In this document: positions 7,223 to 30,733 of the stretch, in pieces
How the letters are laid out: every line of letters starts with the position of its first letter
Position numbering within the stretch: position 1 is the stretch's first letter
Source of the DNA: a virus
Lineage: Duplodnaviria; Caudoviricetes
Length of the DNA stretch: 45,927 bases
Virus record (IMG/VR): IMGVR_UViG_3300037313_000414
Location: 1 to 45,927 of that record
Reading direction: 5' to 3' (one strand)
The notes under the pieces: generated by a model
The model's input: the letters and a program-made list of their open reading frames with translations, nothing else
Databases searched by the model: none
What the model was told of the DNA's origin: nothing
Program-made: the position numbers and the translations under genes

Positions 7223-7265
7223 ATACGGCTCGCGTTCATTCGGTCGCATCGTCGCCCTTCGGCCT
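7223..7265 (-). repeat. Dispersed boundary site (GNA hairpin-core-GGCCG family)
   Basis: Minus strand aggccgaagggc-gacgatgcgaccgaat-gaacgcg-agccgtat; overlaps stop of 7236..7466. Confidence 0.75.
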
Positions 7266-7466
7266 ACTCATCCACTTTAGCGGATAATCCCCACCGTCAG
7301 GGTCCCTAAGTCCTCCACGATATTCCTCGCAATCTTCCTTTAGTACATATCGGCTCTCATCGACATAGTAACAGTCCGATCGTTCGCTGTAGACCTCGAA
7401 TACTTTCCCCTTCTGATTGGCATACCACGCATCCGGTTCGTCACACTTGGTTATGACGATTCTCAT
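7236..7466 (-). CDS. Hypothetical protein (76 aa)
   Basis: ORF with RBS aaggag. Confidence 0.65.
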   Translation of the reverse strand: MRIVITKCDEPDAWYANQKGKVFEVYSERSDCYYVDESRYVLKEDCEEYRGGLRDPDGGDYPLKWMSRPKGDDATE

Positions 7467-7472
7467 AATCGT

Positions 7473-7913
7473 TCACTCCTTATACATCGATATGTAATCC
7501 CCATTCTCACACTTTCCCTCGACCACAATTCCGCCGCACTTCGGACAATACTCCTGCTTCTCCATCTCTGGCAGACTGTCGATAATCCCCTGTAACACCG
7601 TTTCCGCTTTCATCTGCGCCATATTCGCATTGAGTACGATCTGATGGCTGTAACCCCGTACCATCGAATCAAAAATGCCTTTCCCGGTGTTTTCTACTTT
7701 GATTCCCCGGTCCCGCATCTGTCGTCTGAGCTGATATAGTTGTTCCTCGATCTTTTGATCGATTGTATTTTCCCATACTGAGCCGATTAGCGGCCATATG
7801 TCTCCGGTTGTTCTGATCTTCTCCATATCTTGTTTATTGTAGGCTTTTGCGTAGAGTAGGGATATGTATTGATCGATTATTGTTCGATCGGTGTCGTCTA
7901 TTTCTGGACGCAT
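7473..7913 (-). CDS. Hypothetical protein, loosely YhjD-like, with C-terminal CxxC motif
   Basis: RBS aaggag; LRRQMRDRGIKV..RGY pattern recalled for YhjD-like proteins. Confidence 0.55.
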   Translation of the reverse strand: MRPEIDDTDRTIIDQYISLLYAKAYNKQDMEKIRTTGDIWPLIGSVWENTIDQKIEEQLYQLRRQMRDRGIKVENTGKGIFDSMVRGYSHQIVLNANMAQMKAETVLQGIIDSLPEMEKQEYCPKCGGIVVEGKCENGDYISMYKE

Positions 7914-7925
7914 GATATTCTCCTT

Positions 7926-7967
7926 ATTCGGCCTGGGTGGTTCGGTCGAAACGAAGGCCTTCGGCCT
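7926..7967 (-). repeat. Dispersed boundary site
   Basis: Minus strand aggccgaaggcct-tcgtttcgaccgaac-caccca-ggccgaat. Confidence 0.85.
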
Positions 7968-8010
7968 GACTTGATCTTTAACTCTTTAATATATTAATCG
8001 TGCGTCGTAG

Positions 8011-8301
8011 TCAGTTCGCACACTTCACATTATAAAATTTTTCTTTATAACCTTTTCTTTCTGACCAATCCTCTCTTGAGTTGCTTAGTTTAATTTCCTC
8101 GACCTCATACAGGTCTCTAATATCACAACCAATAGTGTCTGCTATTGACAAGGCGTTATCAAAAGTCATATGTCTCCTATTCGTGCAAAAGAAAGATATT
8201 TCCCGCCGATCAAGTCCTGTTTTTAGGGCAAGTTCGGATTGCTTCATCCCGACCTCTCGAAGCCTGTCTTTTAAAAGACATTTTACGATCTGGTACTTCA
8301 T
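8011..8301 (-). CDS. XRE-family HTH regulator
   Basis: LKDRLREVGMKQSELALKTGL..ISFF..N HTH pattern; paralog of 11389..11622. Confidence 0.85.
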   Translation of the reverse strand: MKYQIVKCLLKDRLREVGMKQSELALKTGLDRREISFFCTNRRHMTFDNALSIADTIGCDIRDLYEVEEIKLSNSREDWSERKGYKEKFYNVKCAN

Positions 8302-8323
8302 TCCATATCCTCCTTCGTTATTT

Positions 8324-8355
8324 CATCGTATCGACCGAATATGCGAGGGCCGTAT
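8324..8355 (+). repeat. Dispersed boundary site
   Basis: catcgtatcgaccgaat-atgcgag-ggccgtat. Confidence 0.85.
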
Positions 8356-8360
8356 CGGGG

Positions 8361-8564
8361 TTATCCTTCTTTCTGTATTTGCTCTAAAGCTTCTTTTATG
8401 AACATGTATCCATCCAGATTATAAGCTTTCTTTAATGCTTCTTCTGCAATTTGAATACGAGAGAGTAACTTCTTATGTTCTTCCACATCATGATTCCAAC
8501 TGGATAATGGTACGATCACATAATCGTCACCTAATATCTTACGTGCTTCTTCTATTCGACTCAT
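8361..8564 (-). CDS. Hypothetical protein (67 aa)
   Basis: RBS aggagg, ATG 8564. Confidence 0.7.
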   Translation of the reverse strand: MSRIEEARKILGDDYVIVPLSSWNHDVEEHKKLLSRIQIAEEALKKAYNLDGYMFIKEALEQIQKEG

Positions 8565-8588
8565 TAAGGGAATACCTCCTAAATGATG

Positions 8589-8632
8589 ATACGGCCTCCG
8601 CCTGCGGCTAAGTGTTTTCGGTCGACTCGATG
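8589..8632 (-). repeat. Dispersed boundary site
   Basis: Minus strand catcgagtcgaccgaaa-acacttagccgcaggcgga-ggccgtat. Confidence 0.85.
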
Positions 8633-8943
8633 ACACTTCGTTTTTTCAATTTTTCTTGGACCTTTTTAAACATATCAGCTGAAATAATTGGATCTGACTC
8701 TTCCTTCACTTTCTTTTGATTCCAGAATTCCGGCCAGGGTTTATTTACGTTTTCCAATCCTGCCCGGACCTTTAATCGCTCCCAATAGGCATTCATTACT
8801 AAAAAAGCTTGATCATCTAAATCGATGTTGTATTTTATAAGACGATTAGCGAATCGAAATACACGACGCACCATATCTGCTTCTCGCTCGTTAATGACCA
8901 ACTTTCCATCGATGTAATCGTAGCCCCACATGTTTCGTTTCAT
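8608..8943 (-). CDS. Stand-alone serine-recombinase 'recombinase domain'-like protein with no catalytic domain (111 aa)
   Basis: GYDYIDGKLVINEREADMVRRVF and PIISADMFKKVQEKL mirror integrase segments YGYDTVDEKFVINEEEAENVRMIV and PAIIDRETWEEIQ. Confidence 0.7.
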   Translation of the reverse strand: MKRNMWGYDYIDGKLVINEREADMVRRVFRFANRLIKYNIDLDDQAFLVMNAYWERLKVRAGLENVNKPWPEFWNQKKVKEESDPIISADMFKKVQEKLKKRSVIESTENT

Positions 8944-9200: not shown

Positions 9201-10706
9201 TTATTGAATATTGTACTTGATTTCCACATCTTCTCCGTTATAGATGGTAATACTGTGGATAAGCTGACGGATCGCGTTCTTTTGCGTGAGCCGGTCTCCG
9301 GATCCAATCTGATTCTCCCGTTTCTTTACACTCGATGCTACTTTGTCAACTGATCCTTCGGTTTCTCCGCTTTTGAGTTTATCGATTTCTGCATGGAGTC
9401 GAACGCGGTCATCGTCGATCCGTTGCCGTGCCCGCTTTAAGTCATCGGCAGAAATCAACTCATCCTCATACGCTTCGATCTGCCTTTGCATCTTTTGGTC
9501 CAGTCGTTCGAGTTTAATCTGCAAGTCGCGCAGCTCATCTTCATTACTCTTAGTTGCGCTAATGACTAACTGGAGTTTTGATGGCTGGGAACTGGCTGCG
9601 ATTTCTTTCAGCTGGTCAACCACAAGATTCTCGATATCGTCCCGGTCAATCCAGTGGTGGTAGCAAATTCCCTTCTCGGTATATCCGGCGCATTTATAGC
9701 GGAAATAGTCTTGAATCTTGTTCGTCGCCTTGACATGCTTATGCCGCGCATATCCGACCATCTTATGCCCACAATGGCCGCAGTACAGCAGACCGGATAG
9801 AAGCCATCGTTCGTTGTTCGCCTGCTTGTGGGATCGTTTTCGTCCTTGGAGAGTGATTTGGATTTCTTCCCATGTTTCCCGGTCGATGATGGCGGGGTGA
9901 TGATCTTCGATCACAATCCATTCTTCCTTTGGACGTTTCAGCGTCTTTCCCTCACCATTGCGCCGGTAGGTGCGGTTATAGACCAATGCGCCGAATAAGG
10001 TCTCCCGTTTGACGAGCTGGCGCACCGTATTGGGATACCAGAGACCGCCAACCTTGGTCTTAACGTTGTATTCCGGTGAGTTGAGTCGTGTGGCGATCAG
10101 GCGCGGGCCATACCCCTCCAGAAGCCAATTCACGATCATCCGTACATTCTCCGCTTCTTCCTCATTAATGACAAATTTTTCGTCCACCGTATCATAACCA
10201 TAGCATGGTATCGTGAATGCCTTTTTGGTTTCAGATGCTTTACGTGCAATACTGAGCAGATTATCCCGTACCCGTTCCCGTGTCATTTCTCGTTCAAACT
10301 CCGCGAAACTGCCCATGTTCTGTAGCATAAGCATTCCCTGTGGTGTATTCAGGTCCATGTCCATGTTCAAACATGTATATTTACAGTGGCACCGCTGGAG
10401 CTGATCGATAATCTTTAATGTGTGGTACAGCTTTCGGGAGAGTCGGTCCAGTTTGGTCGTGATGACCATGGCTACTTCCCCGGCTTCAACGTTCCGAAGC
10501 AGGCGCGTCAGCTCCGGCCGTTTCATGTTCTTTCCGCTGTAACCGTCATCGACATAAAAAACGGGTGTGCCTAACCCGTTCATTTTACAATACTGGATGA
10601 TCCGTTCTTTTTGCTCTTCGATGGAGTTACCATGCTTCGCCTGTTCATCCGTACTAACGCGAATATAGGCGGCTATTATGACTTGATGAAAGGTTACGTT
10701 CGACAT
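9201..10706 (-). CDS. int: Large serine recombinase (integrase)
   Basis: YIRVST catalytic motif, DDGYSG, DRLSR, recombinase domain, LSGLLYCGHCG Zn ribbon, coiled coil. Confidence 0.96.
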   Translation of the reverse strand: MSNVTFHQVIIAAYIRVSTDEQAKHGNSIEEQKERIIQYCKMNGLGTPVFYVDDGYSGKNMKRPELTRLLRNVEAGEVAMVITTKLDRLSRKLYHTLKIIDQLQRCHCKYTCLNMDMDLNTPQGMLMLQNMGSFAEFEREMTRERVRDNLLSIARKASETKKAFTIPCYGYDTVDEKFVINEEEAENVRMIVNWLLEGYGPRLIATRLNSPEYNVKTKVGGLWYPNTVRQLVKRETLFGALVYNRTYRRNGEGKTLKRPKEEWIVIEDHHPAIIDRETWEEIQITLQGRKRSHKQANNERWLLSGLLYCGHCGHKMVGYARHKHVKATNKIQDYFRYKCAGYTEKGICYHHWIDRDDIENLVVDQLKEIAASSQPSKLQLVISATKSNEDELRDLQIKLERLDQKMQRQIEAYEDELISADDLKRARQRIDDDRVRLHAEIDKLKSGETEGSVDKVASSVKKRENQIGSGDRLTQKNAIRQLIHSITIYNGEDVEIKYNIQ

Positions 10707-10721: not shown

Positions 10722-10741
10722 AAAAAGCCCCGGATTGGGGC
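10722..10741 (-). terminator. Terminator-like hairpin just upstream of the integrase RBS
   Basis: Minus strand gcccc-aatcc-ggggc-ttttt. Confidence 0.5.
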
Positions 10742-10761
10742 CGTATATTCTCGTTATATCA

Positions 10762-10977
10762 CTACATGTCAAGCCGGTAAAGCGGGTAATGTTCGCCATT
10801 TTCCGGGATAGGCTCATAACCGTTCGTAGTGGCGATCACATACCAGTCTACGGCGCTCTTATAGCCACGCGCCGCGCAGTATGGGTTAGGACATACCCCG
10901 TGGGCGAATAAGCCGTTACGGGTCCATTGTGCTTCGTCGTAGGTGTGTTCGCATTCTCTGCACCATAGGTAGCGCAT
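10762..10977 (-). CDS. Small Cys-rich (Zn-binding) hypothetical protein
   Basis: CxxC...CxxxxC; RBS gaggtg. Confidence 0.7.
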   Translation of the reverse strand: MRYLWCRECEHTYDEAQWTRNGLFAHGVCPNPYCAARGYKSAVDWYVIATTNGYEPIPENGEHYPLYRLDM

Positions 10978-11153
10978 GGCGGTCACCTCATAATCGTGGG
11001 ACTATTTCCCTGTTTCGTCGAATTGACTAAAAATTCGGTAAAATCCGACTTCCTACCCTACCAAATGTCGACAGGAAATCGTATACTCTCTGTACGGACA
11101 AGTATCGAACATGAGTCAATATGAAACCGCTTAACGTAATAACACCAATTACA

Positions 11154-11248
11154 CCCATAACGAACGGGCATACCCGACGAAAGCCGGGGACGCAAAACTA
11201 GAAGGGGCTACAGCCGAAAGGCCATGCCAGCCAGTTGCCGATTATGGG
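11154..11248 (+). ncRNA. c-di-GMP-I (GEMM) riboswitch
   Basis: GGGCA..CC-GAAA hairpin-GGGACGCAAAAC...GGCTA..GAAA..ATGCCAGCCAGTTGCC; P1 cccataa/ttatggg. Confidence 0.85.
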
Positions 11249-11388
11249 TTTCGCTGTCCTTTTGACTAGGACTTTTGAACTAGGCTAAATGATTTTTAAC
11301 CTTACAGCTGAGAGCGGGTGGGAACAAATTGTTCGACACATGTTTCAATCTATAGGTTGAAACTCTCCTTGGGGCAGAGTAGGTTTTT

Positions 11389-11622
11389 CTACTCTGTATG
11401 TCTCTCGTCATCAATTTCCCACTCATACAGGTCATATGTGGTGATGTTCAGGATTTGCGCGACTGATTCAGCAATTTCCAACGACATCAACTTGATATTC
11501 CGCACATAATTTGAGACCATTTGTGGTGAGAGGGAAAGGCGATTGGCAAGCTCGGTTTGAGTCATGCCGGCTTGTTTCAATCGTTGACGCAGAAGACATC
11601 TCCCGGCCCGGAGACGTGTCAT
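11389..11622 (-). CDS. XRE-family HTH regulator, probably SOS-controlled
   Basis: LRQRLKQAGMTQTELANRLSLSPQMVSNY; LexA box upstream. Confidence 0.88.
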   Translation of the reverse strand: MTRLRAGRCLLRQRLKQAGMTQTELANRLSLSPQMVSNYVRNIKLMSLEIAESVAQILNITTYDLYEWEIDDERHTE

Positions 11623-11660
11623 GCGTACCTCTCTCTTTTTTATTCAATTTTAGGTTGATG

Positions 11661-11674
11661 CAAACGCATGTTCG
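11661..11674 (-). promoter_or_regulatory. LexA/DinR (Cheo) SOS box
   Basis: CGAACATGCGTTTG matches the Bacillus consensus CGAACRNRYGTTYG. Confidence 0.75.
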
Positions 11675-11729
11675 TATTAAAATTAAAAACGCGAACGAAA
11701 TTACATCCAATGAGAACAGGCGGTGCTGC

Positions 11730-11897
11730 ATGGAGCAGAAAGATACTTTCTACATCAACCGGGAAGCATTCATTAGACTAAGCATCGATCCAAAGGAAGC
11801 GGTCGAATACTTGGAAAACAAGGAAGCAATCGACATGAATCCTGCTCATGTTAAAGCTCTTGGCCTTTTGAAGATGCCTGTTGAGAATGTTTCATAA
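11730..11897 (+). CDS. Small hypothetical protein (55 aa), convergent on the repressor
   Basis: RBS aggcggtg, ATG 11730. Confidence 0.55.
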   Translation: MEQKDTFYINREAFIRLSIDPKEAVEYLENKEAIDMNPAHVKALGLLKMPVENVS

Positions 11898-13746: not shown

Positions 13747-13824
13747 CAAATATCCCTATTATACCTGAATGATTACTAAAGTGATACTTATTGTTTACAG
13801 AATTAAACAAATTGAAATCTTCTT

Positions 13825-13856
13825 ATACGGCCTGCGCTGATTCGGTCGGGTCGAAG
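13825..13856 (-). repeat. Dispersed boundary site
   Basis: Plus strand atacggcc-tgcgctg-attcggtcgggtcgaag; 27 bp identical to the copy near 21996. Confidence 0.88.
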
Positions 13857-13889
13857 AACAAGCAAATACTTAAACCAGGAGGAAAGAAA

Positions 13890-14528: not shown

Positions 14529-14570
14529 GGCCGCAGGCCATCGAGTCGAACGAATAGGCGCGAGCCGAAA
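14529..14570 (+). repeat. Dispersed boundary site
   Basis: ggcc-gca-ggcc-atcgagtcgaacgaat-aggcgcg-agccgaaa immediately after TAA. Confidence 0.8.
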
Positions 14571-14581
14571 GAAGGTCTACT

Positions 14582-15689: not shown

Positions 15690-15695
15690 AGGCTT

Positions 15696-15735
15696 ATTCG
15701 GCCTCTCTGCGTTAGGCGGTCGAAGAATCTCGAAT
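15696..15735 (-). repeat. Degenerate dispersed boundary site
   Basis: Plus strand attcggcc-tctctgcgtta-ggcggtcgaag. Confidence 0.55.
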
Positions 15736-15768
15736 AGGTCAATAACAAGCGAAGGATGGAGAATCGGA

Positions 15769-15987: not shown

Positions 15988-15992
15988 ACATA

Positions 15993-16684: not shown

Positions 16685-16688
16685 TCTC

Positions 16689-16729
16689 ATACGGCCCCCG
16701 CGTTGCTGAGCTGTTCGGTCGATTCGAAG
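16689..16729 (-). repeat. Dispersed boundary site
   Basis: Plus strand atacggcc-cccgcgttgctgagct-gttcggtcgattcgaag. Confidence 0.88.
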
Positions 16730-18453: not shown

Positions 18454-19221
18454 ATGGATTCTGCTGAAATCATGAAGCGATTGCAGGAGCCATTCCCACC
18501 GGAAGATATCGAGTGGCGTGTAGGCTCTACGAACGGCGACAAGACCAAGGGCATCGCGCTGGCATACGTCACGAATCGGGCCATTATGAACCGCCTGGAC
18601 ACCATATTCGGCCCGTTCGGATGGAAAAACGAATTCCGTGAATGGAAAGGAACCAGCCAACTGTGCGGCATATCGATCAAGGTCGAAGGTGAATGGATCA
18701 CTAAATGGGACGGAGCTGACGACAGCCAAACGGAGGCGGTCAAAGGCGGGTTGTCTGATGCGATGAAGCGCGCCGGTTATCAATGGGGAATCGGGCGGTA
18801 CCTGTACAATCTCGAAAACATGTGGGTGCCGATCGAACCGGCAGGAAAGTCATATCGGCTGAGAGAGGAACCGAGACTGCCGCACTGGGCACTCCCGGAA
18901 GGTTACGAGTACAAAGGCAAACAGCCTGCATCGACTCCACCGCCGCAAGCGGCTGAATCCAATGCACCGGAAGAGGACAAGAAGCAGACGAGCGGACAAA
19001 CGGGAACAACGCCTCCTAAGTCGGAGGGGAACGGAGTCCCGATGTCAGACGCGCAGCGCAAATACATCTACAAGATCAAGAGCGAGAAGAAGATAAACGA
19101 CGATGATTTCAAGCGCATTGTATCGGAGTTGGCGGACGGGAAAACGGAAGTATCAAACCTCAACAAGATGGAAGCAAGTAAGGTTATCAATTTCCTCGCC
19201 AGTTACCAAGTCGCATCGTGA
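18454..19221 (+). CDS. Rad52/Rad22-like single-strand annealing protein (Sak type)
   Basis: LQEPFPPEDIEWRV, AYVTNRAIMNRLD, KGGLSDAMKRA..WGIGRYLY. Confidence 0.9.
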   Translation: MDSAEIMKRLQEPFPPEDIEWRVGSTNGDKTKGIALAYVTNRAIMNRLDTIFGPFGWKNEFREWKGTSQLCGISIKVEGEWITKWDGADDSQTEAVKGGLSDAMKRAGYQWGIGRYLYNLENMWVPIEPAGKSYRLREEPRLPHWALPEGYEYKGKQPASTPPPQAAESNAPEEDKKQTSGQTGTTPPKSEGNGVPMSDAQRKYIYKIKSEKKINDDDFKRIVSELADGKTEVSNLNKMEASKVINFLASYQVAS

Positions 19222-19229: not shown

Positions 19230-19667
19230 ATGGGCATCGGACAAAAGAAACAAAAGCCCGAATATACCGCCTGTACCTGTAAACGGTGTGGCAAGGTAAC
19301 GGAACGTCGCACAATTGCTCTAACAAGCCTCTCTAAGCACTTCTGCGGCCCTTTATGTGTTCGGGAGTATCAACACAGCCGGAAGGTGTCCAAAGCCCGT
19401 ACAGCGCGTTTTAAGCCGTCTGCGAGGCAACGTGGTGCGATCAGTCCGAAGGTGCGGAAACAGTTACGGGAACGGTCAAATGGACAGTGTGAGCGGTGTG
19501 GTGGTGTCGCCGCACATGCGGCCCATATCAAGAGACGATGGAAGCATGAGGTACCGCCTACGGTGGAGGATTTACTTCACCTTTGCATTACGTGTCATGC
19601 CTGGGCGGATCAGACGCGGGACGGTAGGGATTGGCTCAAAAGCTTTGAAAAGCCACAGATCGTTTAG
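19230..19667 (+). CDS. HNH endonuclease
   Basis: CERCG...AHI......LLHLCITCH. Confidence 0.8.
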   Translation: MGIGQKKQKPEYTACTCKRCGKVTERRTIALTSLSKHFCGPLCVREYQHSRKVSKARTARFKPSARQRGAISPKVRKQLRERSNGQCERCGGVAAHAAHIKRRWKHEVPPTVEDLLHLCITCHAWADQTRDGRDWLKSFEKPQIV

Positions 19668-19696
19668 CGGCTCACGCTGATTCGGTCGAATCGAAG
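19665..19696 (-). repeat. Dispersed boundary site
   Basis: Plus strand tagcggct-cacgctg-attcggtcgaatcgaag. Confidence 0.82.
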
Positions 19697-20016: not shown

Positions 20017-20070
20017 AGGCCGAACGGCCTCCGTATCGACCGAACCACACAGCGATAGCGGAGGCCGTAC
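20017..20070 (+). repeat. Dispersed boundary site
   Basis: aggcc-gaac-ggcct-ccgtatcgaccgaac-cacacagcgatagcgga-ggccgtac. Confidence 0.85.
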
Positions 20071-20096
20071 CCCTGATTTAGAAAGGAGCATATCCC

Positions 20097-20980: not shown

Positions 20981-20987
20981 CCCCCTT

Positions 20988-21028
20988 ATCCTGCTTGGGT
21001 ATTGCGGTCGACTCGATGGCGCAAGCGC
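20988..21028 (-). repeat. Dispersed boundary site
   Basis: Plus strand tgggtattgcggtcgactcgatggcgcaagcgc; near-inverse of the 24501 copy. Confidence 0.75.
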
Positions 21029-21826: not shown

Positions 21827-21995
21827 GGAACATAGGAGGGCATCCAGCATGAATGAAACCGGACGAATGATGAGATACCGTCCTACCTTTACGGGAACGA
21901 TGGATTTTCATGTTGATTCGCTATCATGCTAGACGATGTAGTCATGGTGTTCAGAATTGGCATTTTTATCGGATTAAAAGACTTCAAAACCGCTT

Positions 21996-22040
21996 ATACG
22001 GCCTGCGCTGATTCGGTCGATTCGATGGCGGCATAGCCGC
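21996..22040 (-). repeat. Dispersed boundary site
   Basis: Plus strand atacggcc-tgcgctg-attcggtcgattcgatg-gcggc-ata-gccgc. Confidence 0.9.
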
Positions 22041-22064: not shown

Positions 22065-22388
22065 ATGTCTATCGATAAAATCACAGTTGTAGGCGGTTCG
22101 CTCCGTGCTACATTCCTAACCAACAAACTGACGGAGCAAGATTACGCAATTGGTAAAGCATACGCCTGGTTAAGCATGTTAAAAGACAGACAACAACCGC
22201 GCAAATGGATGAGGCCGTCTGCTAAAGGAACAAACATCAATTTCGACATCATTATGAATAAGGAACAACTGGAACAAGCACAAGACGAACTGGAACTTTA
22301 TTTAAAACAGGTTAACCGCCAATTCGGTACAGACCTTGAACTAACTCACCACAAGCCGCAGGCCAACGAATCGACCGAATCCGCATAA
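22065..22388 (+). CDS. Hypothetical protein bracketed by inverted boundary sites
   Basis: RBS gaggagg; ORF reads into the downstream site. Confidence 0.72.
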   Translation: MSIDKITVVGGSLRATFLTNKLTEQDYAIGKAYAWLSMLKDRQQPRKWMRPSAKGTNINFDIIMNKEQLEQAQDELELYLKQVNRQFGTDLELTHHKPQANESTESA

Positions 22389-22396
22389 GCCGGATA
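22355..22396 (+). repeat. Dispersed boundary site
   Basis: gcc-gca-ggc-caacgaatcgaccgaat-ccgcata-agccggat. Confidence 0.82.
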
Positions 22397-22484
22397 AAAC
22401 CCATCCAAAGAGAACAGGAGAGGAATCACTTCTTCTCCTGCTCCTGAAAGGTACAAAAAATGATGTAGAGGGAGGGAGAAGGGG

Positions 22485-22940
22485 ATGGCAAAGGATTGGG
22501 ATGACTTTAAGCAAGTGTACAGGAAAAGGCAGCAGGAGTTTACTGAGTGGAGATTCAAACGGCTTGAGGAAAAGGTAAGCTCACCCATCGAACGTATCAT
22601 GCTAATAGCTCTTACGGATGAGTTTGAACAGTGGGAGCCAAGGATGACAATCGAATACCAAAAGAAAATCGATAAGTACATCGTTGATTTTCTTTTAACC
22701 TACGATTCCAGCGAGAACGGAATAGTCAAAATCATCGTAGAGTGCGACGGTCATGACTTCCACGAACGCACCAAGGAACAGGCTGCGCACGATAAGAAAC
22801 GTGATCGATATTTTAACGAGCGAGGATATATCGTTCTCAGGTATACCGGAAGCGAAATTGTAAGGGATCCGTTCAATTTAACTGACACCATATACGGAAT
22901 CATGGTTCGTAAAGATGGGGTGTTGAACGATGGCTCGTAA
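22485..22940 (+). CDS. DUF559/Vsr-like PD-(D/E)xK endonuclease
   Basis: YIVDFL..IIVECDGHDFH..DKKRDRY...GYIVLRYTGSEI. Confidence 0.85.
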   Translation: MAKDWDDFKQVYRKRQQEFTEWRFKRLEEKVSSPIERIMLIALTDEFEQWEPRMTIEYQKKIDKYIVDFLLTYDSSENGIVKIIVECDGHDFHERTKEQAAHDKKRDRYFNERGYIVLRYTGSEIVRDPFNLTDTIYGIMVRKDGVLNDGS

Positions 22941-23880
22941 AGTCTTCGTATCAAGCGCAATGTCAGCAGATGAGACGTTAAGCGAAATAGCCGAAACTGA
23001 GCCTATGGCTGCTATAATGTGGCCGTGGTTACTTACCTACTTTGACGATTGGGGGCGTGCGAAAGCATCCCCGCGTGAAATCAAAAACAGTGTATTCCAG
23101 GCTAATCCTATTATAACGATCGATCTCATCAAAAAGGCATTGCAATTATATCATCCGCATCTTATTCAGCTTTACGAAGTGGAAGGCAAATGGTACATGT
23201 GCATCCCTTCGGATAAATGGTTCAAGTTTCAGACGCATATCAGAAGTAGCAAGCGGGAAACGGATGCAAGTAAAATACCGGCTCCCCCCGACTTCGAACC
23301 TGATAACGATAATAGCGCGCAAATGCGCGAGATTGCGCGAGGTGTCGCGGAGGTTGCAACAAGTGCGCGTGATTACACACCTTCACCTTCACCTTCTCTT
23401 TCACCTTCACCTTCAAATTATTCTCCTCCTTCTCGTATACGCGAGAATCCGTTCGGACTTTTCGAAACTCACAAATTCGGAAAGTTGGATGATATTACGA
23501 GAGATACAGTCGGTGATGATATCGATATGTATAGCGAGGAATGGGTAGTACGGGCAATAAAAGAGTCGGTGCTAATCAACAAAATTTCGTGGAAGTATGT
23601 ACAAAGCATTCTCGAAAGGTGGAAGAAAACAGGGCACCCGGAGCCGTGGACGCTTGAGAAGCAACAGAAACAGCCAAAGGATAACAAAGTGACGAATTTC
23701 CCGAGGCGCAGCAATTCATACCAACAGTCGAACAAGCCAAAGCTTCCGGTTGCTCCAGCTTCATCGGGTGCCCCCATGTCGGAAGATGAAATCGAGCGGA
23801 TAAGAAACTTAGCCAGGAGAATGAAGGAGGATGGAACACAAGATGGAGACGAGACTCGATCCGCGTCCGCTATACCCTGA
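22930..23880 (+). CDS. Phage replication initiator with DnaD-like C-terminal domain
   Basis: DDWGR N-terminal motif; EWVVRAIKES...SWKYVQSILERW. Confidence 0.82.
   Translation: MARKVFVSSAMSADETLSEIAETEPMAAIMWPWLLTYFDDWGRAKASPREIKNSVFQANPIITIDLIKKALQLYHPHLIQLYEVEGKWYMCIPSDKWFKFQTHIRSSKRETDASKIPAPPDFEPDNDNSAQMREIARGVAEVATSARDYTPSPSPSLSPSPSNYSPPSRIRENPFGLFETHKFGKLDDITRDTVGDDIDMYSEEWVVRAIKESVLINKISWKYVQSILERWKKTGHPEPWTLEKQQKQPKDNKVTNFPRRSNSYQQSNKPKLPVAPASSGAPMSEDEIERIRNLARRMKEDGTQDGDETRSASAIP
23311..23432. other. Putative replication origin within the initiator gene
   Basis: GCGCG iterated at 10-bp phase (23315, 23325, 23335, variant 23345, 23365), then tandem CACCTT repeats. Confidence 0.5.
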
Positions 23881-24100: not shown

Positions 24101-24115
24101 GTGGAGGGATAACCG

Positions 24116-24508
24116 TTGTCGGATAATATCATCCAAATTGATGTGATACGTGTAGAACGGAGAAAGCCGCGTAAATGTGTATGCCAAGAACGTCACTACA
24201 CCATCGACACTGTAAACCGCGAAGTGACATGCGAATGTGGAATGGTTGTCGATCCGTTTGAAGCTATGCTCGATGTAGCCAGGCACTATGAACGGATTAA
24301 TGAACAACATCAAGCACTTGACGCACAACGCCGGGAGTGGATTAAACAAAAACCACACTCCGTTTTGTTCAAACGGCTGGAACAGCAGTACATGCGCGGT
24401 GAAATGCTCCCGTATTGTCCGAAATGCGAAAACTTGTTTGATTTCAAAGACGTGAGATGCTTTGGGAACGCCGAGTTTTATCGCAAATTGGAGAAATCAA
24501 GGCGCTAG
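24116..24508 (+). CDS. Zn-binding hypothetical protein
   Basis: CVC, CECG, CPKC; RBS ggaggg, TTG start. Confidence 0.7.
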   Translation: MSDNIIQIDVIRVERRKPRKCVCQERHYTIDTVNREVTCECGMVVDPFEAMLDVARHYERINEQHQALDAQRREWIKQKPHSVLFKRLEQQYMRGEMLPYCPKCENLFDFKDVRCFGNAEFYRKLEKSRR

Positions 24509-24542
24509 CGCCATCGGATCGACCGAAATACCCAGGCCGTAA
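24501..24542 (+). repeat. Dispersed boundary site
   Basis: ggcgc-ta-gcgcc-atcggatcgaccgaaa-taccca-ggccgtaa; upstream stop codon lies in the hairpin. Confidence 0.88.
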
Positions 24543-24618
24543 GAGGAATTAATAAAATCTTGGTTAAAGCGATTAAATGATTTAAAAGGCGCTTAAAAGC
24601 GATGGAGGAGGGGATAGG

Positions 24619-25721
24619 GTGAGAGTCGGAATACTGGACATCGACACGAAGAAAGAAACAAACGGATTCGGGCGAAAGTCCAAGTATCCGAATATCGCAT
24701 GTGGAAAAATCTACGGCTATCACAAACTAAACGGCGATGAAGTGATTTATCCGTACAACGGCGAGAAGGTAGACCGCCTTTATATATCGACTATTTTCAC
24801 GAACACCCGTCCAATGATAAAGCGGATGCTACCATATTGGGAACAACGGGCGGATGAAATCCTGATCGGAGGAACTGGATGGGATGATTACACGAAAGCG
24901 CCGTACACCATAACCGAATTACCTCCCGAGATAGCCGATATCCCGCATTATCCGTGGACATACGAAATGTATGACATCGATTATGGAATTGGATTCAGTA
25001 CAAGAGGTTGCCACGTTGGATGCGCGTTCTGCGTGGTGCCGAAAAAGGAAGGGCGCGAGGAATACCGGGAAACGCGGGTGCGGGACTTGATTAATCCGCG
25101 AGGCAAACACTTGATCCTGATGAACAACAACAGCCTAGCACATAAGGACTTTTTCGAGGATGTCGCGGAAATCAAAGAACATGGACTCAGCATCCATTGG
25201 GACCAGGCAAACGACATCACACTCGTCACACCGAAGGGATTGCCGAAGCGCTGGCCTCAGTCAACTACCGGGGATTCGACGGGAAGAAAAAGCAGTTATT
25301 CTTTGCTTTCGACCTGTTAACCCGGAAGAAGATTGATCCCGAACACGGCGGAACGGTCATATACGACATGACGAAGGAGGTGCCGGAAAAGGTAAAACTA
25401 TTGGCTGAATACGGTATACCAGCTCACCACCTGGTGTTTTACATGCTGATTGGGTTTAACACAACCGAGGAAGAAGATTTGCAACGTGTGGAGATTCTCC
25501 GATCGCTCGGCTGTGAGATTTATCCGATGTTGTTCCGTGACCTTAACGGCAGGCCTGGAGTGGACGGAAACGGTAAGCCGCAGTCATTCCATGTACGGGC
25601 TTTGCGGGACTGGATCAACAGTGGTGTTTATCGCAAGACCCCATTCAAAGATTTTGAAAGACGGACATCGCACAAGAAGAAACGAGAGTTCGAAGATATG
25701 CAGATGGCTTTCAATTTTTAG
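24619..25721 (+). pseudogene. Radical SAM protein split by a -1 frameshift near 25230-25240
   Basis: RGCHVGCAFC (CxxxCxxC) in the first ORF; protein-like continuation (FAFD, FYMLIGFNTT..EDLQRV) in ORF 25197..25721. Confidence 0.75.
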
Positions 25722-25763
25722 CGCGAAGCGCCGTCGAATCGACCGAATCCACGCGAGCCGATA
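25721..25763 (+). repeat. Dispersed boundary site
   Basis: gcgc-gaa-gcgc-cgtcgaatcgaccgaat-ccacgcg-agccgata. Confidence 0.88.
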
Positions 25764-25794
25764 AAAAATCCCACAAAGGAGGAATAAACCCATC

Positions 25795-26199: not shown

Positions 26200-26300
26200 A
26201 CAAGAGCAAACATGGTTTTCGTTGCTGTACCTGTTGCCACAAGCGCTATAACCGGTGCTACTTCCCATATCACAAATGCAAGGGGGTGGCAAAGACATGA
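26196..26300 (+). CDS. Tiny Cys/His-rich peptide (34 aa)
   Basis: Manual translation; ATGA-coupled on both sides. Confidence 0.45.
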   Translation: MNKSKHGFRCCTCCHKRYNRCYFPYHKCKGVAKT

Positions 26301-26428
26301 ACAACCGAGCAGTCGTAACCTGTAACGAGGGATTTATCAGCGCACAGATGAGTTATATCGAAGCGGTCAAATTCGCGCATCTGCTGGAAGAGCGCGGAAA
26401 CTATCAGGTAAAGGTGAGGTTGGTATGA
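26297..26428 (+). CDS. Small hypothetical protein (43 aa)
   Basis: Manual translation; coupled to rusA start. Confidence 0.5.
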   Translation: MNNRAVVTCNEGFISAQMSYIEAVKFAHLLEERGNYQVKVRLV

Positions 26429-26841
26429 GGACCATAATCGCAGAATTCCCGATCTACGTAAAACCGATGGGCGCCGTACGCATGACTCAGCGGAGCAAAT
26501 GGAAGGATGAACATGCACAAAAATATCTCAGCTACAAAGACGCGATCGGGTTTGCGGCGAAACAGCACATCAAAGAACCATTGAACAAGCCGATCAGCGT
26601 GAAACTGGCCTTTTACTATCCGATGCCGAAAAAATGGAGCAAGTCCAAGAAAGACGATGCAAACGATCAAGGTATCATGCCGGTGGTGAAGCCGGATATC
26701 GACAACTGTATCAAAGGCGTATTCGATGCGCTGAACAAAATCGCCTGGACTGATGATAACCTCGTGGTCGATGTATGGAGCATGAAACGGTACTCGCACA
26801 AACCAATGATTGCTGTGACAATCGAGGAGGTGATCGCGTGA
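26425..26841 (+). CDS. rusA: RusA-family Holliday junction resolvase
   Basis: KPDIDNCIKGVFDALNKIAWTDDNLVV. Confidence 0.92.
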   Translation: MRTIIAEFPIYVKPMGAVRMTQRSKWKDEHAQKYLSYKDAIGFAAKQHIKEPLNKPISVKLAFYYPMPKKWSKSKKDDANDQGIMPVVKPDIDNCIKGVFDALNKIAWTDDNLVVDVWSMKRYSHKPMIAVTIEEVIA

Positions 26842-27041
26842 AACCACTGGCACACGTCCACTGGCTGGACAACGGCGATGAAAAGTCGGTGCCGCTCTAC
26901 GATCAACAGTCGATTGCATCCGTCACAGCCGGTTTGAGACGCGAGAAAGTCGCCTATTGGGTGTGTATGAACAGCATGGACATCAGAATACCACCTGTAA
27001 CGCAATATACGCCACGTAGAGACACGCTGGCGAGTGGGTAG
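26838..27041 (+). CDS. Hypothetical protein
   Basis: RBS ggaggtg, GTG start overlapping rusA stop. Confidence 0.55.
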   Translation: MKPLAHVHWLDNGDEKSVPLYDQQSIASVTAGLRREKVAYWVCMNSMDIRIPPVTQYTPRRDTLASG

Positions 27042-27100
27042 GGTAAAGACAGCGGTAAGGGATTGAAACGCGTTAGAAACGAAAATAGGAGGTTATTTGC

Positions 27101-27307
27101 ATGGTATTCGAAATCGGAAAATATTACGGTCATCCCAGCGGTGAACAAGTGGCAATCGTAGGAGAGGTTAGCACGACGATGTACGGGGGTTGTCTCGTCG
27201 CAGAATCTAGTTCCAGTCCTGATTTAAAACCATTTGGCAAGGATGAATCGCACGCAGAGAACTGGTTTGAAATAACGCGGGACGAGTGGATGAAAAATTT
27301 CTCTTAG
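27101..27307 (+). CDS. Hypothetical protein
   Basis: RBS aggagg. Confidence 0.7.
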   Translation: MVFEIGKYYGHPSGEQVAIVGEVSTTMYGGCLVAESSSSPDLKPFGKDESHAENWFEITRDEWMKNFS

Positions 27308-27358
27308 GCCGAAGGCCATCGAGCCGACCGAACGACCCAGCGAAAGCGGGGGCCGAAT
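27307..27358 (+). repeat. Dispersed boundary site
   Basis: ggcc-gaa-ggcc-atcgagccgaccgaac-gacccagcgaaagcggg-ggccgaat. Confidence 0.88.
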
Positions 27359-27381
27359 CCAATCTTGAGGAGGTTAAAAAA

Positions 27382-27576
27382 ATGTACACCTATGACATGT
27401 ATAAAAACGCAGACAACGAAGCCAGTAAAGACTTCATCGCAAGAAAAATGGCAGACGAACTGCAATTTTACAAGAACAGGTGTCAAACACTCGAACAAAA
27501 CAAACCCGATCCCCTCAAGGTGCTGGAATTCCGCAAGCCGATGCACCGCATTAAGCCGCCGAATGATGCATCATAA
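27382..27576 (+). CDS. Hypothetical protein
   Basis: RBS gaggagg, ATG 27382. Confidence 0.6.
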   Translation: MYTYDMYKNADNEASKDFIARKMADELQFYKNRCQTLEQNKPDPLKVLEFRKPMHRIKPPNDAS

Positions 27577-27617
27577 AGCACAAAATGTTGGGATAAACCC
27601 GCGCAAGACCTACTAAT

Positions 27618-27628
27618 TGTGGTATAAT
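27618..27628 (+). promoter_or_regulatory. Extended -10 promoter element
   Basis: TGTGGTATAAT upstream of the 27690 gene. Confidence 0.55.
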
Positions 27629-27689
27629 AGGTATTATCTATGAAAGTCAACGGATTAATAAGTAAACATTATAGGAGGCATGGAAAAAG

Positions 27690-28754
27690 ATGAATCGAGA
27701 AGACCTGGAAGCACGTTTAGACGAGGTACAGCAAAACATTTCAATTGAAAAACAGCGCGGCCCGGAGAAGAACGCGGAACAAATCGCCATTTGGGAGCAG
27801 GAAGAAGCGGATATTCTCGCACAGATGGATCAACTGGAGAAGCAGGCCGTATCCGAACAGATCAACCAGGCGCACACGGACCGTGTTACAGCGGCATCAC
27901 AGGAAATTGCATCAATTTTGGATACGATCGAGTTTGAAGGGATGAGCATGCGCCAACTGTGCGCCGGCGAACCGCAGTATCAGGCGCTCCGCATTCTTGC
28001 TCAACAGGCGTACCAAGACCAAGCTCAGAAGTACAGTGACCAACTCCGCGCAGCCGAAGAACGGGAAGCGCAACTCAAACGGCAGAACGATATCCTGCAA
28101 CAACGAATTAACCAATCCGAGACGGAAAAACTGCAGTTGCAGACGGAACTCAACGACCGTGAATCGAAACTGCAGGCGGCAACGAGCGAAATCGACCGGC
28201 TGAACAGTCAGGTGGATGACCTTCGCAAGGAAATCGCAGTCGGCGCACGAAGCGCGGTCAAGGTGCAGGACGTGGATCAACTGACCCAACTTCGCAACCT
28301 GGCGGCAGAGATCAAGGCATCGCTTATCCCGATCTACGACAAGAAAGAAATGGACTTCAAAGGCACACGATACAGCGCGAAGCTGGCGAAAAGCGGGGAA
28401 GAAATCGAATTTTCGTATCTGGAATCGCCAAAGTATTACGAAGTCACACCGGAACAGGTGCTGGACTTTCGTCGCCAATACGAAGCCGAGCAGGCCGAAC
28501 TTGCTGCGCAGAACGATACGAACGATCAGCCACTGGCTGAACCCGAGCAGGGCCATGTAACGGGTGAACAGTTTCAAACCACGGATGAAGTACCGCCCGT
28601 ATTACCAGACGTACAAGCACCCACCGTTGATCGAGAGGTGGCATCAGAGGCGGGAACAGATGCTGTCAGCCGAGAGGAAGTTGACGCACGATTCAAACGG
28701 ATCGAGGAACACTTGGGACTGAAATCCTGGCGTTATGACGGCGAGGTGGCGTAA
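27690..28754 (+). CDS. Long coiled-coil protein
   Basis: Glu/Gln-rich heptads; RBS aggagg. Confidence 0.75.
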   Translation: MNREDLEARLDEVQQNISIEKQRGPEKNAEQIAIWEQEEADILAQMDQLEKQAVSEQINQAHTDRVTAASQEIASILDTIEFEGMSMRQLCAGEPQYQALRILAQQAYQDQAQKYSDQLRAAEEREAQLKRQNDILQQRINQSETEKLQLQTELNDRESKLQAATSEIDRLNSQVDDLRKEIAVGARSAVKVQDVDQLTQLRNLAAEIKASLIPIYDKKEMDFKGTRYSAKLAKSGEEIEFSYLESPKYYEVTPEQVLDFRRQYEAEQAELAAQNDTNDQPLAEPEQGHVTGEQFQTTDEVPPVLPDVQAPTVDREVASEAGTDAVSREEVDARFKRIEEHLGLKSWRYDGEVA

Positions 28755-29012
28755 ATGGAGTTTAAATACGAAATTGATACGAGAGTAAAAACGTCCAGTG
28801 AGCTCGTCATTTATCATACGGATGATGAAAGCGGCGAAGAGTACGAAACCGTTATTCCAGTTGGGGCGAATGGTGTTATCGAATCACATGGCTGGAGCTC
28901 GACAGAGGGATTCAGACCGAGGTATGATGTGCTGTTTAAATTACCGGACAACGAAATATCAGTCTCATTTTTCGAACCTGATTTTGAGGAAAATTGCATC
29001 GTCGAACAGTAG
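28755..29012 (+). CDS. Acidic hypothetical protein
   Basis: RBS gaggtgg; directly follows previous stop. Confidence 0.7.
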   Translation: MEFKYEIDTRVKTSSELVIYHTDDESGEEYETVIPVGANGVIESHGWSSTEGFRPRYDVLFKLPDNEISVSFFEPDFEENCIVEQ

Positions 29013-29020
29013 CAGTTGAG

Positions 29021-29072
29021 GGCCGAAGGGCATCGAATCGACCGCATTACCCAGCGACAGCGGGGGCCGTAT
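29021..29072 (+). repeat. Dispersed boundary site
   Basis: ggccgaaggg-catcgaatcgaccgcat-tacccagcgacagcggg-ggccgtat. Confidence 0.85.
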
Positions 29073-29121
29073 AGGTCTATAGCAATAGGTCTATCGGTCC
29101 CTATAGGAGGGGAATAGAACA

Positions 29122-29355
29122 ATGTCAACCATTTGCACAAGTTGCAGAGGAACAGGATATAGCGACTACCTTGAAGACAAGGACACGATATGCCTCACAT
29201 GCGGAGGAATTGGCACATTAGCAGTCGCACAAGTGCCAAGGAATCCGTTTGACTGGATGCAGTCGTGGGTGGATGCTTACGAACGAAACGTGGGAGACGG
29301 AAAGGCGAAAGCGTTTATCGAATGGGTTAACAATCAGCCAATGGCCGCAGGATAA
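29122..29355 (+). CDS. Small CxxCxGxG Zn-finger protein
   Basis: CTSCRGTG...CLTCGGIG. Confidence 0.7.
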   Translation: MSTICTSCRGTGYSDYLEDKDTICLTCGGIGTLAVAQVPRNPFDWMQSWVDAYERNVGDGKAKAFIEWVNNQPMAAG

Positions 29356-29451
29356 GCGGCAGGAGGGGAATAGAGAAGTGAAAATATTCTGGAAGGGATA
29401 TCATCCGCCTTATTGGTATCGATACTTCAAGGGGGAGAGGAGGAACAGAAC

Positions 29452-29631
29452 ATGATGGATAAAGAAGTAAAAGATAAATTCGATTATGTGGCGGAGGCGA
29501 TAAAAATAACCACGATTGAACTCGCCACACTTAAAACGGTACTTACGGCAAAAGGAGTGTTCACAAACGAAGAATACGAAAAGGTGGCAAAGGAAGTCGA
29601 AGCACTAACCACTAAGTCGTTCGGATTTTGA
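29452..29631 (+). CDS. Small hypothetical protein
   Basis: RBS aggagg, ATG 29452. Confidence 0.6.
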   Translation: MMDKEVKDKFDYVAEAIKITTIELATLKTVLTAKGVFTNEEYEKVAKEVEALTTKSFGF

Positions 29632-29690
29632 AATAGTTTCGGCAATCGTCCGGCATGACACCGAAACTAACACATAGGAGATGGTCCGGC

Positions 29691-30113
29691 ATGACTGATT
29701 GGAGAACAACGTACCACGACTTATGCAGGGAAATCGAAATATTGGAACTCCGCGCATCGGACTTGGAATTCCAAATGCGTATCGCCAAATCCATCTGCTT
29801 CCGGGGATTCGTAACCGACCAATATAGCCGCATACCGTTGGACAAGGCGCTGAACAAATATGACGACGTAAAAGACGAACTACTCGCGGTAGTAGCGATG
29901 CTGGAACACAAACAGCAGACCAAACGTGAGATTGAGAAGAGGATGAGCGAGTTTGACGGACTGGAATATCAAGTTGCGTACCGGCGCGATGTACTCCGGC
30001 AACCACTCGATGAGATCGCGGATGACCTGGGGTACAGCTACAACTGGATCATGAAAGTGAGTGCGAGGACGACATTCCGCGCAAAAGGCAGAAAGAAGGC
30101 AGAAACGGCGTGA
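29691..30113 (+). CDS. Late transcriptional activator (RinA/ArpU-like, sigma region-4-type HTH)
   Basis: LEYQVAYRRDV..QPLDEIADDLGYSYNWI; position before the packaging genes. Confidence 0.7.
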   Translation: MTDWRTTYHDLCREIEILELRASDLEFQMRIAKSICFRGFVTDQYSRIPLDKALNKYDDVKDELLAVVAMLEHKQQTKREIEKRMSEFDGLEYQVAYRRDVLRQPLDEIADDLGYSYNWIMKVSARTTFRAKGRKKAETA

Positions 30114-30250
30114 TCGGACGTGATAAAATGATATTAGGTTAGTTCATGCCGGACGAACCGAGCGAAAGGCGATTGCATAGCGCAGTCGTCTTTTTCTTTT
30201 GGAGACAAGTGCATAAGCGCATCTCGAATAAAACGAAGAGGATGAGGACG

Positions 30251-30640
30251 ATGAGTATTAGGACGTTCGAAGGTGAATCGTGGATTTGCGGCTGGTTCAA
30301 TCGGCACACAGGTAGTTTGGTTGACGTACAACAATACAGCACAGAAGAAGGGGCAAAACAGTGTGCCGAGACGTTTCGCGGCATTTACCAAACGTTTGTC
30401 GGTCGTATCGAGGACGTAACGGATTGGGAAAGTGCATCGAAATGTGATGAGGCCGAAATGGAACCAATAGATAAATATAACGAATCTACGGTAAAATCGA
30501 TCGTTGATGATATGAGATACGAATATGCGCAATATTTGCAAATCCTTATCGAAGCGCAAAAAGCCGGTCATGACTGCCACGCGGAAATGAACGAAACAAT
30601 CAAAGCGCTTCACGGCCTTATCTTCGCGAAAACGGCGTAA
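30251..30640 (+). CDS. Hypothetical protein
   Basis: ORF with gagg RBS; followed by a terminator. Confidence 0.65.
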   Translation: MSIRTFEGESWICGWFNRHTGSLVDVQQYSTEEGAKQCAETFRGIYQTFVGRIEDVTDWESASKCDEAEMEPIDKYNESTVKSIVDDMRYEYAQYLQILIEAQKAGHDCHAEMNETIKALHGLIFAKTA

Positions 30641-30646
30641 ACATAT

Positions 30647-30675
30647 GGGCGGTGCGATACCGCCCTTTATCTTTT
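30647..30675 (+). terminator. Rho-independent terminator
   Basis: gggcggt-gcgat-accgccc-tttatctttt. Confidence 0.7.
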
Positions 30676-30733
30676 GCAACGCAGTTGCCATCGAGATCGA
30701 CCGAATCCACGCAGGCGAAGCCGGTGGCCGTAT
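30676..30733 (+). repeat. Dispersed boundary site (last copy before the packaging module)
   Basis: gcaac-gca-gttgc-catcgagatcgaccgaat-ccacgcaggcgaagccggt-ggccgtat. Confidence 0.88.

Follow-up and report, generated by a model that had tools for sequence, protein, structure and literature searches.

A strand-specific, hairpin-bearing DNA site at accessory-gene borders of temperate Paenibacillaceae phages and its possible part in gene exchange

We analyzed IMG/VR virus record IMGVR_UViG_3300037313_000414 (Duplodnaviria; Caudoviricetes), a stretch of 45,927 nucleotides that is called the window below and represents a complete 45.9-kb contig of a temperate phage. Between its genes lie dispersed copies of an element of 30-50 bases, which recurs in phage contigs and prophages whose named hosts are Paenibacillaceae and of which we collected 451 distinct copies. 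The element is bound to the junctions of accessory genes, as a first-pass annotation of this DNA had suspected: in 22 phage contigs the virion genes (358 kb) contain no copy and the remaining 589 kb contain 146, and 10 of the 451 copies sit well inside a gene as called by our own simple gene caller. Our leading reading, held tentatively, is that this is a strand-specific DNA site of Paenibacillaceae temperate phages that folds when single-stranded and serves as a recombination anchor for accessory-gene swapping through a phage annealing protein.

Read along its own strand, the element starts with a T-rich or stop-codon flank, an optional first hairpin (hairpin 1), the dinucleotide C-A/T and a first box, YCGWN-YCGACCGMA, that contains a near-palindrome. 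A linker of 3-4 bases ending in C follows, then either three bases or a second hairpin in the arrangement YYA-hairpin 2-GGN, and then the second box, RGCCGDATA. Both boxes are nearly invariant; four CG positions are 97-100% fixed, and position -2 is C in 433 of the 451 copies (CA or CT in 400). The first-pass annotation had described a spacer of variable length, 6-19 nt; we find that the distance between the boxes is not continuous but is either 7-8 nt or, with the second hairpin inserted, 16-27 nt. About one fifth of the copies are without this inner hairpin. Reading the boxes as coding sequence failed, since the spacer lengths and 1-base indels break any frame.

All 18 positions that the first-pass annotation had listed in the window hold the motif, although its coordinates mark the 5' hairpin or the outer end of a copy and not the core. 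Seventeen copies are intact and score 28-44 bits against a profile that was retrained on copies from many contigs, and one degenerate copy (15695-15723) scores 13 bits. Because 1.49 Mb of shuffled phage DNA gave only 1 match above 20 bits, and 32 above 12 bits, we take the 17 to be real; for the degenerate copy we have its intergenic position and intact second box. The training sets include the window copies, and independent support therefore comes from the same element in other contigs. As had also been reported, the virion and lysis module of the window contains no intact copy, its best match (40166, 15 bits) being inside a gene and at shuffle level.

The inner hairpin carries a signature of DNA folding. 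Its stem is perfect in 229 of 262 long copies and takes over a dozen different forms. When the search pattern allowed any letters in the stem, the stems recovered were complementary in 23 of 23 and 91 of 91 cases, some contigs in the latter set overlapping earlier ones. Hairpin 2 is backed by covariation, its extension weakly so; no such backing exists for a long box-to-box stem, which we also considered, and folding energies favor neither strand consistently. On the element strand, the loops of the 229 perfect hairpins are GNA (141), cGNNAg (50), cGNABg (5) or C/G-CNNG (4), which places 200 of them in stable-DNA classes, compared to 5 of 229 on the opposite strand. The tetraloop classes follow the title of a reference cited in PMC3201870, which reportedly distinguishes four. 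The closing pair is C-G in 203 of 229. RNA prefers GNRA loops, and only 8 of the 51 GNNA loops are of this type. Additionally, the loop bias of the inner hairpin is equal in copies sense and antisense to genes and therefore follows the DNA strand, not the transcript. Loops that are strand-specific whichever way the gene runs point to folding in single-stranded DNA. Hairpin 1 is commoner, and more often of the GNA type, in sense than in antisense copies, so that some role at the transcript level is conceivable. Even on a 2-bp stem, GNA triloops closed by a C:G pair have been described as unusually stable in DNA (PMC3201870).

Placement relative to genes is tight. For 174 of 284 sense copies the upstream stop codon lies no more than 25 bases from the first box, and 43 of the 284 have it within the copy, at the recurrent positions -17 and -23. 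For 93 of 110 antisense copies the downstream start codon lies 14-50 bases from the first box, behind one of a few shared ribosome-binding leaders. Close neighbors tend to stand back to back: gaps of up to 700 bp separate 63 of 100 back-to-back neighbors, 16 of 126 in the same direction and 18 of 58 face to face, in counts that include related, non-independent contigs. These pairs mostly enclose one or two genes between an opening and a closing copy. What the pairs enclose is ordinary accessory content: methyltransferases, YopX, PAPS reductase, RNase H and many genes without assigned function. The partners of a pair are less alike than shuffled partners (10.1 versus 11.5 +/- 0.5 over 70 pairs, with 199 of 200 shuffles scoring as high or higher). 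Neither the back-to-back pairing around single genes nor the strand-specific DNA loops had appeared in the first-pass annotation. As a separate observation, hairpin 1 plus a ribosome-binding leader forms a direct repeat at 2-3 successive gene junctions behind the opening copy in several relatives (G170 32900-33480; G150 10876-11400; L036 9290-10040).

Unpaired copies have an orientation of their own. In 17 contigs with a recognizable replication module, 61 of 68 point away from the module or its initiator gene; 45 of 47 downstream of the module are sense, and 12 of 17 upstream, in the same operon, are antisense. If the origin lies at the initiator and replication is bidirectional, both of which we assume, then the folding strand would mostly be the lagging-strand template.

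Comparing relatives indicated that genes are exchanged between and beside copies. In the pairs G150/G170 (flanks 95-96%) and L365/L433 (81-83%), both bracketing copies are kept and the enclosed gene is swapped; in G141/G166 (100/98%) the opening copy is kept, and the gene is replaced together with a degenerate closing copy. Contigs from other, independent sequencing runs bear on the window itself: one from run X4 departs at 19693 and rejoins at 20026 with other sequence between, one from run X2 joins 13856 to 20082, and one from run X6 joins 21022 to 21418 with 19 other letters, so that all of these joints leave the window at the inner edge of opening copies. One-sided gain or loss occurs at the 3' edge in L361/L365 (a 169-bp gene right behind the second box, flanks 100% identical), G183/L250, L088/L044 and L344/L436, and at the 5' edge in G150/G170 and L355/L346 (at -2), L020/G177 (at -5) and L427/L278 (in hairpin 1). 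In L241/L264 the interior of the element itself is replaced between flanks 96-97% alike.

From folding onward, we infer the following course of events. Replication forks or resected DNA would expose the folded strand, and the mini-hairpins may then resist nucleases or single-strand-binding protein. A phage annealing protein of the Rad52/Erf, RecT, Sak or Sak4 type would pair the shared boxes on two phage or prophage DNAs, and the variable hairpins, looped out of the heteroduplex, would protect the strand or leave it exposed. At a back-to-back pair, two crossovers would swap the bracketed gene; beside a single copy, a gene would be gained or lost through one crossover combined with a microhomology joint of 2-5 bases. 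A slot formed by inverted, unlike partners would be exchangeable but not deletable; such partners could persist because pairing with each other cannot delete their gene. Annealing proteins are reported to need 23-27 matched bases and to tolerate about 17% divergence (PMC3945230), and the boxes offer about 25-30 shared bases, within the range such proteins need. Of 23 element-bearing contigs, 22 encode an annealing protein.

Several observations weigh against annealing at anchor sites. A related annealing protein is found in phages without a copy (G189, L056-L059). Breakpoint enrichment is modest, as comparisons are broken at 76% of ordinary junctions and 93% of copies. Junctions never crossed at ≥75% identity number 34 of 38 with the element and 286 of 389 without (p=0.03), and at ≥85% identity 14 of 18 and 147 of 227 (p=0.31), with related contigs that are not independent. 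Some breakpoints lie elsewhere, in terminator T-runs or at ribosome-binding sites at a distance of 16-46 bases. Each joint from the other runs comes from one contig of low depth, whose short side has 25-38 letters and which may be another phage with copies of its own, and six other joints in those runs are not at copies. All of the runs were used as contigs, in which recombination is not observed directly. The class of copies that separates replication bias from transcription bias is small (12 versus 5, p=0.14), and the origin position and bidirectional replication are assumptions. Finally, plain annealing leaves unexplained the perfect 2-bp stems, the 97-100% fixed CG positions and the four one-sided events no more than 3 bases from the 3' edge, features that would better suit a protein that binds or nicks the site.

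Because annealing alone demands neither perfect stems nor edge-precise joints, we give some weight to a dedicated single-strand site-specific enzyme, although we consider it rather unlikely. Such an HUH-type nickase or integrase-like protein, host- or helper-encoded, would cut the element at both edges, directly 5' to the first box and where the second box ends, and join or remove neighboring genes. It would suit the strand-specific folding, the fixed CG positions and the conserved C at -2 with its CA or CT; some REP transposases are reported to cut at CT and CA (PMC8266576). It would also agree with the location of several breakpoints (-2 to -5 and -2 to +3), with the bias to the presumed lagging-strand template, as described for attC (PMC5371416), and with the four copies in chromosomal DNA that is not phage-like, two of which share a variable site. 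The proteins offer no candidate for this role: the 23 contigs and 4,189 proteins searched yielded no transposase, reverse transcriptase, primase, conserved HUH-motif family or shared recombinase, a search in which a remote enzyme could be missed, as most small proteins are without a family and only part of the unannotated ones were library-scanned. Apart from helix-turn-helix (HTH) proteins, no family is common to all 23. Four of the 23 encode a tyrosine recombinase, which belongs to the lysogeny integrase family. Of 5 hosts tested, 2 have Y1 transposases, with no copy at the 9 loci around them (several of these loci are short). A small HNH family near many copies was considered and reaches only 14 of 23 contigs. 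The breakpoints, too, are not confined to one base, and ribosome-binding sites 16-46 bases off account for several of them. The fixed crossover base of a site-specific cassette system, as the first-pass annotation had envisaged, is thus not borne out so far, with breakpoints at both edges and at nearby ribosome-binding sites and with ordinary junctions broken nearly as the copies are (76% versus 93%). A natural gene-capture system, whose folded single-strand sites would be edge-cut at the replication fork by a host or helper enzyme so that single copies capture genes and inverted pairs exchange them, is likewise an idea we regard as doubtful.

Readings of the element as a regulatory site, a priming signal or a selfish element fit worse than those based on an annealing anchor or an enzyme. 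A dispersed regulatory site (an operator for a repressor or roadblock, or a signal for RNA processing or antitermination), with swaps that use incidental homology, is improbable. Confinement to the early and accessory region at gene junctions would suit it, as would the near-palindrome in the first box and a 5' hairpin that differs between sense and antisense copies. However, inner-hairpin loops follow the element strand rather than the transcript and avoid GNRA, and box spacing shifts by whole hairpins, which a double-strand operator could not tolerate. No copy matched an Rfam covariance model; none matched at E<=5 in 19500-31000, and the sole Rfam match in the window, a c-di-GMP-I riboswitch, lies elsewhere. 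No core contains a terminator consensus or, within 6800-31200, a sigma-70-type promoter, one promoter match merely touching the 5' hairpin at 7966. The operator and RNA-processing alternatives raised in the first-pass annotation are also argued against by the back-to-back pairing and the strand-specific DNA loops.

A single-strand priming or replication-restart signal, which might resemble ssi or PAS sites and be only secondarily used in recombination, is more improbable still. DNA-type hairpins and unpaired copies directed away from the initiator gene (61 of 68) speak for it. Against it, the element is absent from 358 kb of virion genes, which also need replication, varies from 1 to 17 copies per contig, and lacks the inner hairpin in about one fifth of copies; moreover, no primase family was seen in the contigs. 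The element may also bear some resemblance to phiX174-type primosome sites, RSF1010 ssi, Streptomyces telomere hairpins and the B. subtilis Chi.

We think it very unlikely that the element is a selfish miniature transposable element (PATE-, MITE- or REPIN-like) that inserts at T-runs and survives only between non-essential genes. Copies do stand often directly behind terminator T-runs: at one terminator slot, selected because copies lay there, a copy follows at once in 21 of 35 loci, after inserted DNA in 8, and is absent in 6. Both orientations and occasional chromosomal copies would fit as well. However, 14-, 42- and 71-unit flank comparisons, the last made on brackets, produced no clean empty site. 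Among the 42 comparisons with both flanks, 25 had a copy in both, 14 had extra DNA and 3 were without a scored copy, which were an HNH replacement, a degenerate copy and a match by chance within a gene. The copies within one genome are all different, and partners are less alike than chance. Hosts hold at most 2 matches per genome, in 20 of 401 genomes. A terminal-inverted-repeat transposon was rejected on partner dissimilarity and the bracket comparisons, and a transposon with split left and right ends was set aside as no half-sites flanking a transposase were seen. Separately, an HNH endonuclease gene replaces the first box and leaves part of the second in L233, at the terminator slot, and in G141 (11515-12099), as if homing endonucleases targeted the element.

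The family extends through IMG/VR contigs, metagenome contigs and species genomes, all of which gave matches in pattern scans; the metagenome contigs are phage-like wherever their genes could be judged. Of 15 matches in species genomes, 9 are multi-copy loci in Paenibacillus, Cohnella, Gorillibacterium and one Bacilli genome, and the remaining 6, each a single GC-rich match, appear to be chance hits. Under a strict pattern, matches came from 20 of 401 host-family genomes (1-2 matches each, 0 control matches) and from 1 of 151 Bacilli genomes, which is the centre genome itself. Of 20 host regions examined, 16 are phage-like and 4 are not. The latter hold single copies in chromosomal DNA (L267:6578, L268:6286, L275:6314 and L276:6339). 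In L267 and L268 the copy stands behind the same operon with different DNA on both sides, and in L276 a small phage-like gene lies beside it; chromosomal relatives were too distant to give junctions for any of the four. Searches of annotated phage and plasmid collections with two different copies gave no real match (blastn with 57-61 bases of a variable motif, a weak test). A Tad2-like anti-Thoeris gene (L192:1664-2122) lies in the element-bearing region of G147.

Copies and related features of the window are collected in Table 1. Four brackets can be recognized, with cores or outer ends at 7925/8326, 13824/14541, 19664/20031 and 21995/22366. At the last of these the closing core (22366-22396) overlaps the last codons of the enclosed gene, whose stop falls in the spacer. 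A lone first box with a hairpin-like flank (7184-7197, minus strand) lies 25 bases behind the 7222 copy and overlaps the leader of gene 6948-7166. A lone second-box match occurs at 10738-10748 (plus strand), after a terminator-like hairpin just upstream of the integrase gene.

Table 1. Element copies, bracketed genes and selected other genes of the window
Feature	Position	Strand	Remarks
Copy, short form with 5' hairpin	7222..7264	-	Sense to leftward genes, unpaired, 29 bits
Copy, short form with 5' hairpin	7925..7966	-	Closing partner, pair around 8011-8301
Bracketed Cro/CI-type HTH gene	8011..8301	-	
Copy, short form	8326..8356	+	Antisense, opening partner, just before ribosome-binding site of 8011-8301
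Copy, long form (inner hairpin, GCA loop)	8588..8630	-	Sense, unpaired
Large serine integrase (large serine recombinase)	9201-10706		
Copy, short form	13824..13854	-	Antisense, opening partner, pair around 13890-14528
Bracketed gene, 212 amino acids	13890..14528	+	
Copy, short form with 5' hairpin	14529..14571	+	Closing partner, immediately after stop codon
Degenerate copy	15695..15730	-	Antisense, first box damaged, 13 bits, near shuffle level
Copy, long form	16688..16727	-	Antisense, unpaired
Gam-like Gp157 gene	17966-18448		Directly upstream of Rad52/Erf-like gene
Rad52/Erf-like single-strand annealing protein	18454..19221	+	Putative catalyst
Copy, short form	19664..19694	-	Antisense, opening partner
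Bracketed gene, 96 amino acids	19725..20015	+	Other sequence here in contig of run X4
Copy, long form, both hairpins	20018..20071	+	Closing partner
Copy, short form with 5' hairpin	20987..21028	-	Antisense, unpaired
Copy, short form with 5' hairpin	21995..22040	-	Antisense, opening partner
Bracketed gene, 107 amino acids	22065..22388	+	Stop codon inside closing copy
Copy, short form with 5' hairpin	22355..22396	+	Closing partner
DnaD-like replication initiator gene	22930..23880	+	Origin assumed here
Copy, short form with 5' hairpin	24501..24543	+	Sense, unpaired
Copy, short form with 5' hairpin	25721..25764	+	Sense, unpaired
Copy, long form, both hairpins	27307..27359	+	Sense, unpaired
Copy, long form, both hairpins	29021..29073	+	Sense, unpaired
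Copy, long form, both hairpins	30676..30734	+	After terminator 30647-30665; last copy before terminase genes

Besides the genes in Table 1, the phage encodes a repressor/Cro region, an antirepressor, RusA, terminase, portal, capsid, a short-tail adaptor, a tailspike and a GH25 lysin. The terminase led us to no close cultured relative, and a tRNA scan found no tRNA. Runs containing the window stretch are soil and rhizosphere metagenomes, with no RNA run listed among them. The c-di-GMP-I riboswitch (67 bits, 11157-11242, plus strand) is flanked by an integrase-proximal gene and the repressor region, which are encoded on the other strand, and related riboswitch matches occur in other runs. Just downstream of the integrase, a small gene (8608-8943, minus strand) resembles part of a serine-recombinase DNA-binding domain (phrog_95) and may be a directionality factor or a remnant. 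The initiator gene contains six-base repeats (23378-23415, plus strand) that form a candidate origin and attract unrelated contigs. A radical-SAM-like gene (24619-25721, plus strand) consists of two overlapping frames, 24619-25320 and 25197-25721, both phrog_9298, and is bounded by the copies at 24514 and 25734; in L282 a 365-amino-acid single-frame relative lies between copies. A 354-amino-acid coiled-coil protein of no known family (27690-28754, plus strand) has homologues in 14 of the 23 element-bearing contigs and a similar family in 5 more; we considered it as a lead to the function of the element, and it gave none. After the tailspike, on the opposite strand, an O-antigen-ligase-like (Wzy_C) membrane gene (43707-45098, minus strand) is likely a surface-conversion moron.

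The element is not attC, REP, an Rfam family or a promoter, and we found no prior description of it in the open-access literature. It appears to work most like the promoter early stem-loop (PeSL) cassettes of T4-type phages, and its strand logic resembles that of attC or REP, but it fails the defining tests of each. PeSLs are likewise short dispersed phage elements at accessory-gene borders in hypervariable regions, with a proposed role as homology for gene excision and insertion, and are absent from core genes (PMC2839356). The element shares with them accessory-gene indels beside copies, at modest enrichment, and absence from core genes. PeSLs are also described as containing a promoter consensus and yielding mini-circles between flanking copies (PMC2839356). 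The element, in contrast, has no promoter consensus, forms back-to-back pairs, bears strand-specific DNA-type mini-hairpins and belongs to temperate Paenibacillaceae phages. None of the joints listed, which come from assembled contigs only, is a circular joint at copies.

Integron attC sites carry the core boxes R'' and R', RYYYAAC ... GTTRRRY. These are present in 0 of 456 copies taken with their flanks, which bears out the first-pass annotation's statement that the sequence is not attC. Additionally, the element has conserved sequence boxes and no single long stem, IntI or attI, and its copies occur in both orientations, with close neighbors mostly back to back, instead of in a direct array. 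The absence of IntI from the window was also rightly noted: none of 83 open reading frames scanned is a tyrosine recombinase, and the integrase is a large serine recombinase. Of the integron-like logic proposed there, the gene swaps and gains beside copies and the folded single-strand signature hold up; a site-specific system with its own recombinase is not supported so far. In common with attC, as characterized in the cited work, are tight packing against stops and ribosome-binding sites and an apparent preference for the lagging-strand template (PMC5371416). The attC sites are described there as recognized in the form of one folded strand, and the strand-specific loops of the element (200 versus 5 of 229) may reflect a similar mode.

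REP and REPIN sequences with their RAYT (TnpA-REP) are reported to combine strand-specific single-strand hairpins between genes, inverted doublets and adjacent CT or CA (PMC8266576, PMC3337134). Our element has no GTAG-headed palindrome (GTAG occurs anywhere in only 76 of 456 copies, and the boxes form no such stem). Its doublets enclose genes between unlike partners, it is not chromosome-wide, no RAYT adjoins it, and no excision was seen. IS91 and ISCR ends are described as hairpin-bearing single-strand ends with one-sided gain of adjacent DNA and T-rich 5' neighbors (PMC13181058). The element differs from these and from IS200/IS605-derived PATEs: it has neither a transposase nor distinct left and right ends, lacks a fixed target tetranucleotide and shows no empty sites. 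The boundary sequences of lambdoid phages and the stoperators of mycobacteriophages are repeated short sequences at gene borders of temperate phages. They act through plain homology or as repressor sites of one direction, and compensatory hairpins and inverted brackets are not known from them. We regard the element as a novel form of phage boundary element and see a fair possibility that it represents a site-specific system of a new kind.

It has long been asked how temperate phages reshuffle individual accessory genes so exactly at gene borders; the answers given so far are relaxed homology and repeats that contain promoters. In the present case a DNA site selected for structure is common to a whole phage group, and the contents of its slots differ between near-identical phages. 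Because the slots are defined and their contents differ, defined mutants would allow a direct test of exchange. The loops belong to stable-DNA classes that in vitro selection has brought to light and would represent a rare natural case of sequence selected for folding in single-stranded DNA. If a dedicated enzyme exists, it would bring new recombination chemistry with potential as a tool in Paenibacillus, a genus used in agriculture. If the sites do capture genes, they would give temperate phages an integron-like platform without an integron integrase.

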